From a virus, in UHGV virus genome UHGV-1747598: DNA of 10,864 nucleotides. One strand, given 5' to 3'. The notes below the pieces were generated by a model. The model was not told where the DNA came from and did not search any database. It saw only the letters and a program-made list of their open reading frames with translations. The first letter of the stretch is position 1. Every line of letters starts with the position of its first letter. The position numbers and the translations under genes were made by a program. This document shows positions 2,456 to 10,864 of this stretch, one piece after another.

Positions 2456-2481
2456 AAGACGAAAACGTTGGTTTGGGGGAA
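2456..2481 (+). other. Invertase crossover site 1 (hix/gix-like, 12-2-12)
   Basis: AAGACGAAAACG-TT-GGTTTGGGGGAA. It resembles the gix/hix architecture (..AAACC-NN-GGTTT..) as I recall it. It lies about 55 bp upstream of the invertase start, at the 5' boundary of cassette A. Confidence 0.6.
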
Positions 2482-2901
2482 GGCTCTGCGCTGCCCGTTG
2501 GTGTGCCCGTTCCATGGCCCTCAGCCACGCTGCCAACGGGGTGGCTGAAATGTAACGGCGCAGCATTTTCTTCTGAAATGTACCCCAATCTGGCAAAGGC
2601 CTACCCCGCCAATAAATTACCGGATTTACGGGGCGAATTTATTCGTGGCTGGGATGATGGACGTGGTGTGGACAATGGGAGAGCATTATTAAGCAGCCAA
2701 GAGGCTACAAATTTTTCTCAGCGTGCCGGAAATATAGGCGATGGTGCGGGCCACGCAATTAATTTTCATGATGGCATAGTCGGAAATCAGCCAGGATTTT
2801 CACGATTTAATTTCACCAGTAACTCTGTAGGCGATGGTATAAATTATGTTGCTGTCAGGCCGCGAAATATCGCATTTAATTACATCGTAAGGGCAGCATG
2901 A
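2470..2901 (+). CDS. Silent alternative tail-fiber C-terminal cassette A (no start codon of its own)
   Basis: The translation GSALPVGVPVPWPSATLPTGWLKCNGAAFSSEMYPNLAKAYPANKLPDLRGEFIRGWDDGRGVD...RPRNIAFNYIVRAA is near-identical at both ends to the C-terminus of the H tail fiber, with a different central block. It begins at crossover site 1 and ends with TGA at 2899-2901. Confidence 0.7.
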   Translation, partial: GLGEGSALPVGVPVPWPSATLPTGWLKCNGAAFSSEMYPNLAKAYPANKLPDLRGEFIRGWDDGRGVDNGRALLSSQEATNFSQRAGNIGDGAGHAINFHDGIVGNQPGFSRFNFTSNSVGDGINYVAVRPRNIAFNYIVRAA

Positions 2902-2920
2902 AAACGTTGGTTTGGGGAAA
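2895..2920 (+). other. Invertase crossover site 2 (hix/gix-like)
   Basis: AGCATGAAAACG-TT-GGTTTGGGGAAA. The stop codon of cassette A (TGA) is embedded in its left half-site. Same orientation as site 1. Confidence 0.6.
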
Positions 2921-3388
2921 GGCTCGGCGCTGCCCGTTGGTGTACCTGTTCCGTGGCCCTCAGCTACTCCACCAACGGGCTGGCTGAAATGCAACGGCGC
3001 AGCATTTTCTTCTGAAAAGTATCCCAAACTGGCACAGGCTTACCCCGCGAACAAATTACCGGATTTACGCGGTGAATTTATCCGTGGCTGGGATGATGGG
3101 CGAGGAATTGATGCAGCACGCGCTTTATTGAGCATTCAAACCGGGATGTTGGAAAAACACCGCCATATTGTTGTAGCTAACGATAGATATGACACAAAGG
3201 ATGAATGGGAGTTGGCCACGATTTTCAAAAAAACATATACACAAGGCAGGGGGCTTGATGCCACAAATACAGGAGGGAGTTTGATTCCATCACCAACGCT
3301 TCATTCACGAGGAAGTATTGGTAACACAGGTGGTAGTGAAACCCGCCCCCGCAATATTGCATTTAACTATATCGTGAGGGCGTCTTAG
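2909..3388 (+). CDS. Silent alternative tail-fiber C-terminal cassette B
   Basis: It has the same conserved 5' block (GSALPVGVPVPWPSATPPTGWLKCNGAAFSSEKYPKLAQAYPANKLPDLRGEFIRGWDDGRGID) and the same 3' motif (RPRNIAFNYIVRAS), with a distinct central region. Stop TAG at 3386-3388. Confidence 0.7.
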   Translation, partial: GLGKGSALPVGVPVPWPSATPPTGWLKCNGAAFSSEKYPKLAQAYPANKLPDLRGEFIRGWDDGRGIDAARALLSIQTGMLEKHRHIVVANDRYDTKDEWELATIFKKTYTQGRGLDATNTGGSLIPSPTLHSRGSIGNTGGSETRPRNIAFNYIVRAS

Positions 3389-3394
3389 TTATAT

Positions 3395-4006
3395 TCAACT
3401 GGCTGCTGCCAGTGGTATTTCCGGCCAGTTGATATCTGGTGCCATGTTTATATCCATTGCGTTCAGTGCGTCTATATAATCCAGCACGGCGTTAAGCCGG
3501 GTGGTTTCTGCCTGCGTCAACTTCCGCCCGGCCTGCAACTTCAACTGAATCAGACTTACGGAAGCCATTGCCGCATCAGCCAGTGACTGGCGCTTGGTTT
3601 CTGCCGCTTCTACTGCGGCACCATGTTGTGCCTCAGTATCTGTCACCCATTTTTCACCATCCCATTTATCGTATGGTGTTAACGGGGCGATAGTGGTTGT
3701 ATTTTTCGGGTAGTCACCCAGCGTCGTGATTTCTTCGGTGTTTCCCGTGTCAGTGTTATAGACGGTTTCACCACGATGGTCTGGCGCATACTCCCATGAA
3801 CTTAAATTCTCCGAACGGCGGATAGCATAGCCCGCTTTATGTGCGCCCGGGGCATCTAAACAGGAATTTGCCGGAATACCGACACCCACAGCAAGATATT
3901 CAGTTGATTCGGAAATATATTCCCGTGTTTCACCATCATAGTTATAAACGACGATGTTTCCTGCCTGTACGGCAATAAGGTCATCATTTAATATCGCGTT
4001 ATTCAT
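3395..4006 (-). CDS. Tail fiber assembly protein (Tfa chaperone)
   Basis: The 203-aa product (MNNAILNDDL...VYNYDGETREYIS...YAPDHRGETVYNTDTG...PYDKWDGEKWVTDTEAQH...) looks like the Tfa proteins encoded next to tail fiber genes in lambdoid, Mu and P2-like phages. Its ATG overlaps the stop of cassette C as TAATG. Confidence 0.8.
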   Translation of the reverse strand: MNNAILNDDLIAVQAGNIVVYNYDGETREYISESTEYLAVGVGIPANSCLDAPGAHKAGYAIRRSENLSSWEYAPDHRGETVYNTDTGNTEEITTLGDYPKNTTTIAPLTPYDKWDGEKWVTDTEAQHGAAVEAAETKRQSLADAAMASVSLIQLKLQAGRKLTQAETTRLNAVLDYIDALNAMDINMAPDINWPEIPLAAAS

Positions 4007-4467
4007 TATGCGGTTCTCACAATATAATTGAAGGCAATATTGCGTGGGCGGCTTTCATTCCCATCTGAGGATTCCGTTCTGTATTGACTGGTAAATCTAC
4101 CGTTAATTGCACCTTGCCAGACGGCGTTATCTGTCGACAACAGACTATCCCCTCCTTTGTCATTTGGCACCAGTACCGTGTTATCCCACGCGTCCCATGA
4201 CCGAATATTATGATAATGACTTCCTGTTAACCACCCCTGCATGCTTAAGATGCCCCTTCTGGCATCCACCCCGCGCCCATCATCCCAGCCACGGATAAAT
4301 TCACCGCGTAAATCCGGTAATTTATTGGTGGGGTAGGCTTTTGCCAGTTTGGGGTACATTTCAGAAGAAAATGCTGCACCGTTACATTTCAGCCAGCCCG
4401 TTGGTGGTGTTGCTGAGGGCCACGGAACGGGCACACCAACGGGCAGTGCAGAACCTTCTCCTAAACC
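4006..4467 (-). CDS. Silent alternative tail-fiber C-terminal cassette C, translationally coupled to tfa
   Basis: Translation NVGLGEGSALPVGVPVPWPSATPPTGWLKCNGAAFSSEMYPKLAKAYPTNKLPDLRGEFIRGWDDGRGVD...RPRNIAFNYIVRTA. It follows the stop of the active cassette and crossover site 3, and has no independent start. Confidence 0.7.
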   Translation of the reverse strand, partial: GLGEGSALPVGVPVPWPSATPPTGWLKCNGAAFSSEMYPKLAKAYPTNKLPDLRGEFIRGWDDGRGVDARRGILSMQGWLTGSHYHNIRSWDAWDNTVLVPNDKGGDSLLSTDNAVWQGAINGRFTSQYRTESSDGNESRPRNIAFNYIVRTA

Positions 4468-4481
4468 AACGTTTTCATGCT
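4456..4481 (-). other. Invertase crossover site 3 (hix/gix-like)
   Basis: On the - strand this reads AGCATGAAAACG-TT-GGTTTAGGAGAA. The stop codon of the active H gene (TGA, 4477-4475) is embedded in its left half. It is inverted relative to sites 1 and 2. Confidence 0.6.
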
Positions 4482-6115
4482 GCCCTTACGATGTAATTAA
4501 ATGCAACGTTGCGAGGGCGAGTTTCTGTACCTACATTTCCACTAATTTTACCAAACCGTTTTACATTACGAGAGCTAATGGCTCGTAGTGAGGAAGGCAC
4601 CTTTAAACCGGGTTCGTCTGTTTTAACTATTCCCCCGTCCCCGTATGTAGCCAGTATTCCAGGGTTTACTCCTTCCCGTGTACTTCCCGCGGCAAGTCCA
4701 TCCCCGGTCCATAATTCCATATAGTGTGCATGATCCAAAATTGTGTGTGGCTGCCAATTAAGCAAAGCGCGGCCAGCATCCACCCCGCGCCCATCATCCC
4801 AGCCGCGAATAAATTCTCCCCGTAAATCCGGTAATTTATTGGCGGGGTAGGCCTTTGCCAGATTGGGGTACATTTCAGAAGAAAATGCTGCTCCGTTACA
4901 TTTCAGCCAGCCCGTTGGTGGTGTGGCTGAGGGCCATGGAACAGGCACACCAACGGGCAGTGCAGAGCCTCCCCCCAAACCAAGGTAATCAAGAACTCCC
5001 TGAGTGCTGGTTTTACCAAGAATGGCACGTCCAACACTTGTCAACGCGGTTAACGCGGCACGATCTGCCCCTGTAAAATATGGGAGTTTATCTGCTGATG
5101 TAGCAAGCTCCGCCAGCGCCGTCAGGGTGGCATCCTTCGGTTGCTTACCCGCAAGCGCGTTAGTCATGGTGGTCGCAAAATTCGGGTCATTGCCCAGCGC
5201 CGCAGCCAGTTCGTTCAGCGTGTTCAGTGCATCAGGTGACGAATCTACAAGTGCGGCAATCGCGGCCATAACGAAAGCCGTGCTTGCGATCTGGGTACTA
5301 TTAGCCCCCTGTGGCGCTGTTGGTGTTGTTGGCGTTCCGGTCAGTGCCGGGCTGTTTAATGGTGCTTTCTTGTTCGTTTCATCCATTACCGCCTTAACAG
5401 CTTTTGGTGTCGCTGCCAGCGTTTCAGACGTGCTGTTCGTGGCGCTACTGAGCTGAACAATCCCTTTTTGTGTAGTGGTGGCGTTCCGGGCGGTATATTT
5501 CCCGTTAGCCAGGTCATATGCAGCCTTAACCGCTTTCGGTGTTGCGGCCAGTGTTTCTGATTCACTGTTAATTGCACTGCTTAACTGAGTAAAACCTTTT
5601 ACGGTCAGCGAGGCGTCCGGGTGACGTCGTGATTGTTCGTGCTCTGATATTTTATCATCCACATATTTGCGGGTTGCCAGAACCACAGACGGGTCGATTT
5701 TCAGCGTGATGGCTTCGGTGTTCGTGACAACCAGAATCATGCGGATAGTCTGGGTGCGTCCACTGCCTTCCTGCAACTGCGGTTTGTACGTTTCCGGGCA
5801 GTTTGCCACCGCAATGAGTACACCTTCATCATCATAAAGACCAATCTCACGGATCCAGAATCCTCCCTCGTTTTCAGGGATGATTTGCTCCGCAATAATC
5901 TGGCTCTGATTGTTAGGGTCAACACTCAGAAGATTCAGCGGTGCAATGCGTTTCTGGTTAATCAGTTTTGTTTGTGCAGGGTCTGGTGTTGGTAACACAC
6001 CATTTGCATCACCAACGGCCATTTGCGTCAGATTCAGCTTACTGCCGAGCATCGTCGCGTTAGCCAGTCGTGCCGCGCCCTGATTAGTCAGAATGGCGTA
6101 GTATTTCACTGTCAT
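4475..6115 (-). CDS. Tail fiber protein H (P2 gpH-like constant N-terminal region fused to the currently active C-terminal cassette D, about 4475-4982)
   Basis: The 546-aa product starts MTVKYYAILTNQGAARLANA...MAVGDANG and contains EHEQSRRHPDASLTVKGFTQLSSA and the twice-repeated SETLAATPKAVKA motif, which match my memory of P2 gpH. The C-terminal 166 aa carry the shared cassette blocks. Its ATG overlaps the gpI stop as ATGA. Confidence 0.85.
   Translation of the reverse strand: MTVKYYAILTNQGAARLANATMLGSKLNLTQMAVGDANGVLPTPDPAQTKLINQKRIAPLNLLSVDPNNQSQIIAEQIIPENEGGFWIREIGLYDDEGVLIAVANCPETYKPQLQEGSGRTQTIRMILVVTNTEAITLKIDPSVVLATRKYVDDKISEHEQSRRHPDASLTVKGFTQLSSAINSESETLAATPKAVKAAYDLANGKYTARNATTTQKGIVQLSSATNSTSETLAATPKAVKAVMDETNKKAPLNSPALTGTPTTPTAPQGANSTQIASTAFVMAAIAALVDSSPDALNTLNELAAALGNDPNFATTMTNALAGKQPKDATLTALAELATSADKLPYFTGADRAALTALTSVGRAILGKTSTQGVLDYLGLGGGSALPVGVPVPWPSATPPTGWLKCNGAAFSSEMYPNLAKAYPANKLPDLRGEFIRGWDDGRGVDAGRALLNWQPHTILDHAHYMELWTGDGLAAGSTREGVNPGILATYGDGGIVKTDEPGLKVPSSLRAISSRNVKRFGKISGNVGTETRPRNVAFNYIVRAA
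4970..4995 (-). other. Invertase crossover site 4 (hix/gix-like), inside the tail fiber gene at the constant/variable junction
   Basis: On the - strand this reads TTCTTGATTACC-TT-GGTTTGGGGGGA, encoding ...LDYLGLGG.... The central TT occupies the same codon positions as in cassette sites 1-3. Confidence 0.6.
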
Positions 6116-9656: not shown

Positions 9657-10864
9657 TTATGCTGCGGGATTATTGATTTCCAGCACCAGGCTGCCGATAT
9701 CGACGCCGTACGCGGCATTTTTAGTGATATCAGTTAACGTCAGCGCATTCAGCCCCAGTGTCAGACTGTCTTTTATGACCTGGAATGCCGGGCCAGCCAC
9801 TCCATTCAGTTTCGGAGTAACCGTGGCACTGCCGGCGGTGAACACCAGCTCCAGCGTCTGCCAGTCGTTACTGTAATTCCCGAACTCGCCCAACTTTGTG
9901 TTTCCTGCTTTCTTGTGATGCATCAGATTCAGTTTGCCGTCTGTGGTCTGGGTGAAGAACGACATCAGGAACGGGTTACCAGTCCCGGTCATCGCCACGA
10001 CGTCAGGTAACGCTACATCGGTATACAGATAAATTCCCAGACCGAACTGATTGTTGGTCAGTGCGCCTGACAGTCGAAACTTACAGCTCAGTCTGCCACC
10101 CCGTGTCAGCAGGGAGACTGCGTCATCCACCGGATGCATCAGGGACCAGGTTTTATTGCTCTGCTTGGTAACCTTAAACACACCATCTTCCAGCGCAACA
10201 CTGCCGCCGGTGATGGTCCAGCCCTGCGCAGCAGCCTCTCCGGCTGTCGGCAGCAGGGAGACTGTACGAACGGATGTGTCACCATCAGACGGCCCCGATG
10301 GCGTGTCGCCGCCGGGCGAGGGTTTAATCTCCGGTGCGGTACCGCTGATGAAGGCGCTGGTTCGACCAACTGCGTTCAGAATAGCGGTTGCCAGGCGATC
10401 CGAAATAATGCCCCTGCGCGCCCATGAACTGAAATGTGTCGGACGATTTGACGATACCCAATTACCATTACTACGGGATTGCGCGCCGTAATAACCTGCA
10501 TCAGCAATATCCGGGTCTTCTGCCGGTAAGTTGGTGGGCGTGTTGTTGCCGTTACCGTCGGTCATGAACGGCACAAAGAAAACGTTGTCGCTCTCCCTGT
10601 TTTTGTACGCGCCGTAGACGGAGTCATACTGTGTGCCGTATGTGTTTTTCCAGTAATACGTCGTGTCGCCACAAATCCACGGTACAACTGCAGCACTGCC
10701 GCCATGGCACTGCGCGTTAAATCCGGAAAGGTCAGTACGGAACTGCTTCAGCATGGCCGTGAACAGGTCCGGTTGCTGTGCGTAGGTGGCAGCGCTCATG
10801 TCAAATTCGCCCTGCATCCAGCACACCGCCAGCAACACATTTTTCGGGTTCTTCTGTAATGCAG
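9657..10864 (-). CDS. Partial CDS (N-terminus outside window): C-terminal part of a NanS-like sialate O-acetylesterase domain fused to a beta-rich, lectin-like C-terminal domain
   Basis: The frame is open to the window edge. Motifs CWMQGEFD, PWICGDTTYYWK, PAEDPD and HFSSWARRGIISDR resemble what I recall of E. coli NanS and prophage NanS-p esterases. The C-terminal ~200 aa are Gly/Thr-rich. It ends 23 bp upstream of gpR in the same orientation. Confidence 0.4.
   Translation of the reverse strand, partial: ALQKNPKNVLLAVCWMQGEFDMSAATYAQQPDLFTAMLKQFRTDLSGFNAQCHGGSAAVVPWICGDTTYYWKNTYGTQYDSVYGAYKNRESDNVFFVPFMTDGNGNNTPTNLPAEDPDIADAGYYGAQSRSNGNWVSSNRPTHFSSWARRGIISDRLATAILNAVGRTSAFISGTAPEIKPSPGGDTPSGPSDGDTSVRTVSLLPTAGEAAAQGWTITGGSVALEDGVFKVTKQSNKTWSLMHPVDDAVSLLTRGGRLSCKFRLSGALTNNQFGLGIYLYTDVALPDVVAMTGTGNPFLMSFFTQTTDGKLNLMHHKKAGNTKLGEFGNYSNDWQTLELVFTAGSATVTPKLNGVAGPAFQVIKDSLTLGLNALTLTDITKNAAYGVDIGSLVLEINNPAA

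Follow-up and report, generated by a model that had tools for sequence, protein, structure and literature searches.

Introduction

One of the closest precedents for the locus considered here, an array of alternative tail-fibre ends in the viral genome UHGV-1747598, is the Min multiple DNA-inversion system of plasmid p15B, which was reportedly described by Sandmeier, Iida, and Arber in 1990-92. One stretch of UHGV-1747598, 10,864 nucleotides long, was analysed and is referred to in its entirety as the window. As in Min, the window holds more than two crossover sites in both orientations and a constant 5' fibre part (that of tail-fibre gene H) with several 3' cassettes, next to a serine invertase of the Din family, an arrangement in which many isomers are possible. 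The two systems also differ: that of the window lies in a P2-type chromosomal prophage, has another H constant part and the fixed half-sites CTTGATTACC and GACGAAAACG, and comprises four sites and a single tail-fibre assembly gene, tfa, flanked by an invariant pair of fibre tips (tip types T4 and T2).

Simpler switches are the G segment of phage Mu with Gin, the C segment of P1 with Cin, and Pin of e14. They share with the window an invertase of similar sequence (approx. 78% identity to Gin), 26-bp sites, crossover at a central dinucleotide, and alternative fibre C-termini with Tfa-type chaperones; however, they have two sites and mirror-image pairs of a tip plus a chaperone, whereas the window has one chaperone and four tips. 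Phage P88 itself is organised in this classical mirror-image fashion, with two tips and a chaperone for each. The R64 shufflon also possesses several invertible cassettes that provide alternative C-termini for one constant gene, but its enzyme Rci belongs to the tyrosine recombinases and acts on asymmetric sfx sites, and both enzyme and sites are unrelated to those of the window. The idea that conserved boxes of tail-fibre genes mediate site-specific as well as homologous reshuffling reportedly dates back to a 1994 review by Sandmeier. In prophage Phi2 of EC958, the site is followed by an imperfect repeat of 197 bp (227 bp at 96% identity), and inversion has been seen directly in PacBio reads (PMC4134206). 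Phi2 and the window have sites of the same family (right halves GGTTTAGGAGAA and GGTTTGGGGGAA) and Collar-domain tips in common, but Phi2 contains two cassettes with one inversion, whereas the window contains four, with direct and inverted repeats at 86-92% identity. In carotovoricin, conserved blocks that flank the variable receptor-binding parts serve as homology for exchange beside inversion by an invertase (PMC13195805); there, whole tailocin loci are exchanged between species, whereas the window concerns blocks of approx. 200 bp relative to tips within a phage array.

A four-tip, single-tfa array in a P2-type prophage is thus of an already known kind, and it is common in sequenced E. coli. 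An earlier note on this DNA proposed that the repeated blocks of the array allow homologous rearrangement and may render it unstable. Homology-driven instability would be a reasonable and unsurprising corollary of a known architecture; the proposal as a whole is only partly borne out. The analysis presented below indicates that positions 2456-4995 of the window very probably constitute the invertible segment of a Min/p15B-like multiple-inversion host-range switch in a P88-like prophage, in which the conserved blocks act secondarily as homology for exchange.

Crossover Sites and Invertase

A Min-type system requires more than two sites and more than two alternative 3' ends, and the window has four of each. 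All four 26-bp sites share a central TT, and two lie on each strand. Site A, the invertase-proximal one with the fixed left half, is located at 2456-2481 on the + strand (AAGACGAAAACG-TT-GGTTTGGGGGAA) and is followed on the same strand by site B at 2895-2920 (AGCATGAAAACG-TT-GGTTTGGGGAAA), the left half of which is the end of cassette A, including its stop codon. On the - strand, site C (4456-4481; AGCATGAAAACG-TT-GGTTTAGGAGAA) takes its left half from the end of cassette D, and site D (4970-4995; TTCTTGATTACC-TT-GGTTTGGGGGGA) forms the junction between the H constant part and cassette D. The sites fit the imperfectly dyad-symmetric Din-type pattern (..AAAC[C/G] NN GGTTT..) and are present in inverted orientation. 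Their right halves agree with the Sandmeier consensus in the form quoted by Forde et al. (PMC4134206), and those of site A (GGTTTGGGGGAA) and site C (GGTTTAGGAGAA) are identical to the Phi2_3prime and Phi2_5prime sites of EC958, respectively (PMC4134206).

Fifteen E. coli prophage loci on the same backbone were parsed into sites and cassettes; approx. 40 loci were inspected in total, those on IMG/VR contigs being drafts. In each of the 15, the left half at the H end is fixed as CTTGATTACC, the left half at the invertase end is fixed as [G/A]AC[G/A]AAAACG, and CATGAAAACG is found at every internal junction, which is the pattern expected if crossover always takes place at TT. The right half-site allele GGTTTAGGAGAA is carried by at most one, rarely two, cassettes per parsed locus; over all parsed loci, it occurs at 1 of 38 invertase-proximal, 8 of 32 H-proximal, and 15 of 89 internal positions. 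Its rarity at the invertase-proximal position may reflect biased partner choice by the invertase.

The gene adjoining site A (1802-2401, - strand) encodes a serine DNA invertase of the Gin/Cin/Hin/Min ('Din') family that consists of 199 amino acids and contains the Pfam domains Resolvase and HTH_7. Its N-terminus, MQIGYIRVSTNDQ, includes the conserved serine, and the protein displays the layout of the small serine recombinases, i.e., a catalytic domain with the active-site serine and a C-terminal helix-turn-helix. It is approx. 78% identical to Mu Gin in structures 4m6f and 3uj3 (E = 7e-84), and in all related loci a 600-nt invertase gene is annotated as 'recombinase family protein'. Judged by sequence, the enzyme and its sites belong to the Gin/Cin/Min family. 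Switches of the Din family depend on a recombinational enhancer in cis that is bound by Fis and typically located in the 5' part of the invertase gene.

A Gin-like invertase would recombine any + strand site with any - strand site at the central TT and invert the DNA between them, and each such inversion would put a different cassette in frame behind the constant 5' part of H. The window copy presumably switches in the same way as its close relatives, in which site-specific inversion has been demonstrated (see below).

Tail-Fibre Gene H, Its Cassettes, and tfa

The expressed tail-fibre gene H (4475-6115, - strand; 546 amino acids; Pfam Phage_tail_fib, Phage_fiber_2, and Collar) is composed of the constant part (6115-4984) and cassette D (4475-4981, -), which encodes tip T5 in 168 codons, is fused in frame to the constant part, and carries its block from 4983 down to approx. 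4765. Cassette C (4006-4467, -; tip T4, 153 codons; block from 4469 down to approx. 4255) is silent in the window isomer. On the + strand, cassette A (2470-2901; tip T11, 143 codons; Pfam Collar; block from 2468 to approx. 2678) is a silent, promoterless 3' segment, and cassette B (2909-3388; tip T2, 159 codons; Pfam Collar; block from 2907 to approx. 3125) is likewise promoterless and convergent with tfa. The latter, the single tail-fibre assembly (chaperone) gene of the array (3395-4006, -; 203 amino acids; Pfam Caudo_TAP, E = 3e-32), overlaps with its start the stop codon of cassette C.

All cassettes end in a common conserved 3' sequence, which encodes ..ETRPRNIAFNYIVRAA followed by the stop codon at 3327-3388 (+) in cassette B and has its equivalents at approx. 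2850-2901, 4006-4067, and 4475-4531. This conserved stretch of approx. 50 nt (..RPRNIAFNYIVRAA and stop) forms inverted repeats of 50-52 nt at 82-83%, and its last bases, including the stop codon after the motif ...NYIVRAA, are the left half-site of the next cassette. The 3' end is a second, shorter homology flanking every tip.

A single chaperone gene accompanies four or more tips; in all cleanly assembled E. coli loci, tfa has T4 directly upstream and T2 in convergent orientation. In the isomers found in STEC1590, NCTC9022, and EPEC1, tfa is antisense to the H operon. A promoter scan for a + strand promoter able to express tfa in such flipped isomers yielded nothing above the shuffled expectation. 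Either most tips do without Tfa, or the expression of tfa in flipped isomers is unexplained.

The Conserved Blocks

The earlier note described four near-identical homology blocks of 190 bp, in direct and inverted orientation, at 2470-4982; these two positions directly follow the central TT of the outermost crossover site at either end. The presence and orientation of the blocks were confirmed by repeat search and alignment, but both the length and the degree of identity had to be revised: homology extends approx. 205-225 nt from the crossover TT, and identity amounts to 86.2-92.4%. The repeat search returned one direct pair on the + strand (2461-2700 and 2900-3139, spacing 439) and another at 4262-4477 and 4776-4991 (spacing 514), the first pair being inverted relative to the second, with arms of 223-279 nt that are 86-91% complementary. 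The longest perfect runs measure 25 nt for A/B, 32 nt for C/D, 29 nt for A/C, 23 nt for B/D, 50 nt for B/C, and 74 nt for A/D. Since the four blocks align without indels, an in-register exchange would stay in frame. Blocks of this kind recur in thousands of E. coli genomes, and the length and identity of the repeats are far beyond chance.

The blocks are coding sequence. They specify the first 66 residues of each tip (66 codons, Collar domain), and the encoded proteins are 92-97% identical; the codon differences between any two blocks comprise 10-18 synonymous and 2-5 amino-acid-changing ones. Their likeness stems mainly from purifying selection on the Collar domain, a protein module common to all tips: as the blocks encode its conserved residues, they have remained alike despite drift at synonymous sites.

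Exchange Between Blocks and Tips

The earlier note regarded the blocks as long enough for homologous recombination, and at the population level this is supported by the reassortment of block haplotypes among tips. Statistics on blocks and tips were computed for a clean subset, namely, complete genomes minus suspect assemblies and all draft contigs. For T2, which is present in 11 clean loci, the tips are 98.7% identical and the blocks 92.8%; for T4 in clean complete genomes, the corresponding values are 98.1% and 93.3%. In 13 of 39 blocks, the nearest relative resides on a different tip type, and in three cases (T4 of SCU-101, T4 of JNE082640, and T2 of Q5) the match to a block of another tip type is 100%. 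The four-gamete test failed for 68 of 210 informative site pairs in the T2 block and for none of 15 in the T2 tip; for T4, it failed for 86 of 153 pairs in the block and 10 of 28 in the tip. The haplotype GGTTTAGGAGAAGGTTCT, for example, occurs on T4 (window, D72, AR_0013), on T2 (KOr024, NCTC9022, STEC1590), and on T1 (JNEC-KY180). The same decoupling of blocks from tips is repeated in the larger set of loci. An invertase that cuts at TT cannot separate a block from its tip; therefore, this reassortment is due to homologous recombination or gene conversion.

Block identity within a locus (90.1%) is close to that between loci (89.5%), and it may well be with other elements, and not with neighbouring cassettes, that exchange takes place. 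Of 5,426 E. coli genomes, 3,274 contain sequence related to the invertase-cassette region, in a median of 2 places and a maximum of 31. Approx. 1,565 of these places lie on plasmids, namely, P1-like phage-plasmids that measure 90-105 kb and bear as many as 8 'phage tail protein' fragments, and related cassettes are present on several prophage backbones and P1-like plasmids within the same cells. Ectopic donors are therefore abundant. Loci with flanks that are 99-100% identical can carry different cassette sets. Simple reciprocal homologous inversion of the tfa core was also considered as a source of the mosaicism, but only 3 of 231 locus pairs are cleanly reciprocal, so the mosaicism could not be assigned to it.

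Cassette Number and Isomers in Related Loci

The earlier note proposed to compare cassette number across related genomes, and the outcome is in its favour, since the number varies instead of being strictly fixed at four. E. coli loci with clean assemblies contain two (D72, AR_0013, STEC1590), three (KOr024, E2348/69), four (window, C325, NCTC9022), or five cassettes (Q5, JNEC-KY180, JNE082640); among the error-prone assemblies, 19AR0253 has three sites and LR-62-2 five. IMG/VR contigs, including P1/p15B-like ones (L035-L037), contain the same tip families in up to 8 cassettes. The length differences of 439 and 953 bp between loci equal the repeat spacings, and the cassettes are self-contained units bounded by half-sites, whole units being 439 and 514 bp. 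It had been predicted that exchange between blocks D and C would fuse H to cassette C and drop D; this form, which also lacks A, exists in D72 and AR_0013, where H is fused to C (T4), followed by tfa and then B (T2) alone. In addition, KOr024 is without A and 19AR0253 without D. All cleanly assembled loci have an invariant core in which T4 is immediately upstream of tfa and T2 is convergent, and the extra tips (T1, T3, T5, T11, T13, T14, T15) are stacked outside this T4-tfa-T2 core. NCTC9022 contains the four tips of the window as an isomer that is one inversion (sites A and C) away. Variation in cassette number reveals neither its mechanism nor its direction.

A tip type is present twice in one array in four IMG/VR contigs (L018, L027, L029, and L035): in L029, the order is T14 T5 T4 tfa on one side and T2 T5 T14 on the other, with the duplicates inverted, and L035 has T14 twice in direct orientation. 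These duplications were not used as evidence of unequal exchange, since drafts of mixed isomers can create duplications. Several assemblies labelled 'complete', those of PC6 (L005), 19AR0253 (L008), LR-62-2 (L013), and 19AR1321 (L016), contain many indels, frameshifts, and truncated genes in the invertible segment only; in the flanks, they match clean relatives at 100% identity. Such errors probably represent corruption of the consensus by mixed isomer populations. The identical-flank pairs D72/PC6 and 19AR0253/19AR1321 were rejected as natural deletion experiments because PC6 and both 19AR assemblies are full of indels in this region. For prophages of the ST131/EC958 Phi2 type, there was no usable clonal set among the matches listed, and a scan of genome contigs with the exact 19-mer of the H junction returned mostly chance matches in unrelated metagenome-assembled genomes and one Escherichia draft.

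Rearrangements and Stability of the Array

One usable clonal comparison was available, that between E2348/69 (CP059840.2) and its derivative EPEC1 (LT903847.1). The flanks are identical, and the sole difference is an exact inversion of 1,998 bp, bounded by the central TT of each outer site. Crossover was confined to the site plus 35 nt, each block stayed with its own tip, and longer identical runs of 41 and 63 nt deeper in the blocks went unused. In this pair, the inversion crossed at the site and not in the deeper homology, through which, according to the earlier note, exchange between inverted copies would mimic the action of the invertase.

A second rearrangement was resolved in SCU-101 (L006, CP048920.1), the H protein of which has 662 amino acids. 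It contains two Collar domains, as a truncated T2 tip continues in frame into an entire T4 cassette. The strain retains the two reciprocal junctions, CACCAACGC-TT-GGTTTGGGG and GCAGCATGAAAACG-TT-CATTCACGAGG (L006 2613-2640 and approx. 3797), and among 5,426 E. coli genomes the contiguous junction is found in this strain only. These junctions correspond to a single conservative inversion in which a canonical site recombined with a quasi-site inside the T2 tip that has the same central TT; it was a site-specific error and not one driven by homology. Cin reportedly also uses quasi-sites with a matching central dinucleotide (Iida and Hiestand-Nauer, 1987). In the window, the counterpart of the SCU-101 quasi-site lies inside tip B at 3288-3313 on the + strand (CATCACCAACGC-TT-CATTCACGAGGA, with TT at 3300-3301).

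Evidence of deletion through the blocks was sought in 19AR0253 (H-T11) and NCTC9022 (H-T5, then T11). The junction block is not chimeric, as the T11 block of 19AR0253 is T11-like from the first informative single-nucleotide polymorphism on; the 19AR0253 assembly is, however, error-prone there. Exchange breakpoints inside the homology are thus seen at the population level but neither in the clonal pair nor in this comparison. When direct pairs of blocks were compared with inverted pairs for greater divergence, no difference was detected (p = 0.85-0.89), and tandem (direct) cassettes coexist with perfect runs of up to 176 nt. The coexistence of such similar direct pairs, which are no more diverged than the inverted ones, argues against marked instability. 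The claim that the tandem array is unstable is not upheld, given that no chimeric deletion junction was found and that tandem direct blocks persist side by side despite their similarity. Nothing in these comparisons indicates that the blocks make the array unstable or that homology drives the observed inversions or deletions.

Properties of the recombination machineries point in the same direction. The minimal efficient processing segment (MEPS) in bacteria is at most approx. 30 bp, and exchanges that encounter mismatches are stopped by mismatch repair. The direct pairs of the window, with perfect runs of 25 (A/B) and 32 nt (C/D), which are close to this limit, and 87-90% identity overall, would be poor substrates for homologous exchange, and A/D (74 nt) and B/C (50 nt) would be better ones; given the short runs of the direct pairs and the longer ones of these inverted pairs, homologous inversion is more plausible than homologous deletion. 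As for the invertase, deletion is as efficient as inversion in hyperactive Hin. In wild-type enzymes of the Hin family (Hin, Gin), unlike in the mutants that act by simple collision, the invertasome formed with Fis and the enhancer aligns the sites for inversion, and therefore invertase-mediated deletion should be rare. Both deletion and intermolecular fusion are strongly disfavoured for the wild-type invertases of this family. Rare homologous deletion together with rare invertase-mediated deletion fits a fairly stable array.

Competing Explanations

According to the preferred reading, that of a Min/p15B-like switch with blocks as secondary homology, the blocks and the short conserved 3' ends would offer entry points for homologous recombination or gene conversion, the partner being a further cassette, a different prophage, or a P1-like plasmid present in the same cell. 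In the course of evolution, such homologous exchange would reassort blocks and tips and probably contributes to the gain, loss, and replacement of cassettes; on short time scales, rearrangement would be site-specific and the tandem array reasonably stable. Maintenance in tandem would then reflect low deletion rates and selection for a wide host range. Several points weigh against this reading. Inversion has been seen only in relatives, and the window represents a single isomer; block mosaicism could stem mostly from exchange between phages instead of within one locus; clean reciprocal swaps of T2 and T4 blocks occur in only 3 of 231 locus pairs; and some 'complete' assemblies are error-prone in the region, although the block-tip pattern holds in the clean subset. 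A more elaborate, tentative version would have the array evolve in two layers: the invertase shuffles whole cassettes at TT, while homologous exchange in the approx. 200-bp blocks and approx. 50-bp 3' ends joins blocks, together with their right half-site alleles, to other tips and increases or reduces the number of cassettes through unequal exchange with the many related arrays in the cell, the array size of 2-8 being set by the balance with selection. In a sharper form of this proposal, the right half-site allele (GGTTTAGGAGAA or GGTTTGGGGGAA) would bias inversions, so that reassortment would re-programme the switch.

The view taken in the earlier note, in which the blocks drive frequent RecA-dependent, invertase-independent inversions and deletions and an intrinsically unstable array is kept only by ongoing selection for diversity, appears unlikely. 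It can draw on 205-225 bp of homology that is in frame in both orientations, on perfect runs of 25-74 nt, which reach or exceed the bacterial MEPS (at most 30 bp), on the existence of 2-, 3-, and 5-cassette variants, with the predicted H-C-tfa form followed by B among them, and on the mosaic blocks, which prove past exchange inside the homology. However, mismatch repair aborts exchanges of the kind open to the direct pairs (25 and 32 nt perfect, 87-90% overall), the clonal isomer pair crossed at the site and not in the longer identical runs, and no chimeric deletion-type junction was found, the T11 block of 19AR0253 being an example. Moreover, direct pairs with runs of up to 176 nt persist without being less similar than inverted ones (p = 0.85-0.89), and loci with fewer cassettes may be ancestral and not products of deletion. 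The opposite extreme, a purely site-specific process in which the invertase deletes a one-cassette circle between direct sites, or captures such a circle, and homology is irrelevant to structural change, is doubtful. The cassettes are indeed bounded by half-sites, lengths differ by whole units of 439 and 514 bp, the junction blocks of shorter arrays are not chimeric, the invertase accepts odd partners such as the SCU-101 quasi-site, and hyperactive Hin deletes as efficiently as it inverts. Nevertheless, the wild-type Hin/Gin invertasome strongly disfavours deletion and intermolecular fusion, and such a process cannot account for the separation of blocks from tips.

Horizontal replacement, by which phages, prophages, and P1-like plasmids would swap arrays or tips via the constant part of H, the invertase gene, the blocks, and the 3' ends, with little change within a locus except inversion, has a substantial chance of being correct, if not quite an even one. 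Related cassettes on several backbones and P1-like plasmids (up to 31 places per genome), blocks that are no more alike within a locus than between loci, and different cassette sets between flanks of 99-100% identity are all in its favour, as is the exchange of carotovoricin tail-fibre loci by homologous recombination (PMC13195805). It leaves unaccounted for the strictly conserved T4-tfa-T2 core with the extras always outside, and it is compatible with the preferred reading, being homologous recombination through the blocks too. That the block mosaicism is an artefact of consensus or polishing errors in mixed-isomer assemblies is very improbable. Although the 'complete' assemblies L005, L008, L013, and L016 are frameshifted or truncated exactly in this region, and Forde et al. 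caution against contig artefacts of alternative alleles (PMC4134206), the same haplotypes recur in independent genomes (e.g., GGTTTAGGAGAAGGTTCT on T4, T2, or T1), and the statistics hold without the suspect assemblies and draft contigs.

Phage Backbone and Neighbouring Genes

The window corresponds to that part of a P2-type temperate phage genome which specifies the tail and baseplate. Among phages, it is most similar to Escherichia phages 500465-2, P88, and their relatives (92-95% identity over the conserved parts), P88 being placed in Xuanwuvirus, Peduoviridae. On the + strand, the end of the tape-measure gene is followed by gpU (1281-1775); the - strand carries gpR, gpS, V, W, J, I, and then tail-fibre gene H (6115-4475). 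The interval between gpU and H holds the invertase, cassettes A and B (+), tfa, and cassettes C and D (-). Gene content and synteny agree with those of P88 and of numerous prophages in E. coli. Since the flanks share 99.2-99.9% identity with prophages of this species, the window originates from E. coli or a very close relative; a near-identical full-length copy was absent from the complete E. coli genomes of the collection searched.

A hairpin with a 12-bp stem and T-runs on either side is located at 1783-1812, between the convergent gpU and invertase genes, and is likely a bidirectional terminator that separates two tail operons. At the other end of the window, adjoining gpR, a - strand open reading frame (9657-10838) encodes a protein of 393 amino acids with Pfam domain DUF6645. 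It shows approx. 86% DNA identity to a gene annotated as yjhS (9-O-acetyl-N-acetylneuraminic acid deacetylase, nanS-like) of Stx1a-converting lambdoid phages, whereas P88 has another gene at that place; it is probably a cargo gene common to unrelated phage types.

Implications

These results bear on the annotation of phage genomes, in which silent cassettes are routinely called separate 'phage tail proteins', and on quality control of assemblies, as mixed isomers corrupt the consensus sequence at such loci. The engineering of phages and tailocins with swappable receptor-binding tips is also concerned. Invertible tail-fibre arrays determine which hosts temperate phages and phage-plasmids can infect, and most E. 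coli genomes contain cassettes of this kind. The conserved blocks of such an array are coding sequence plus a crossover site; inversion is site-specific, and homology mainly reassorts blocks and tips over evolutionary time.

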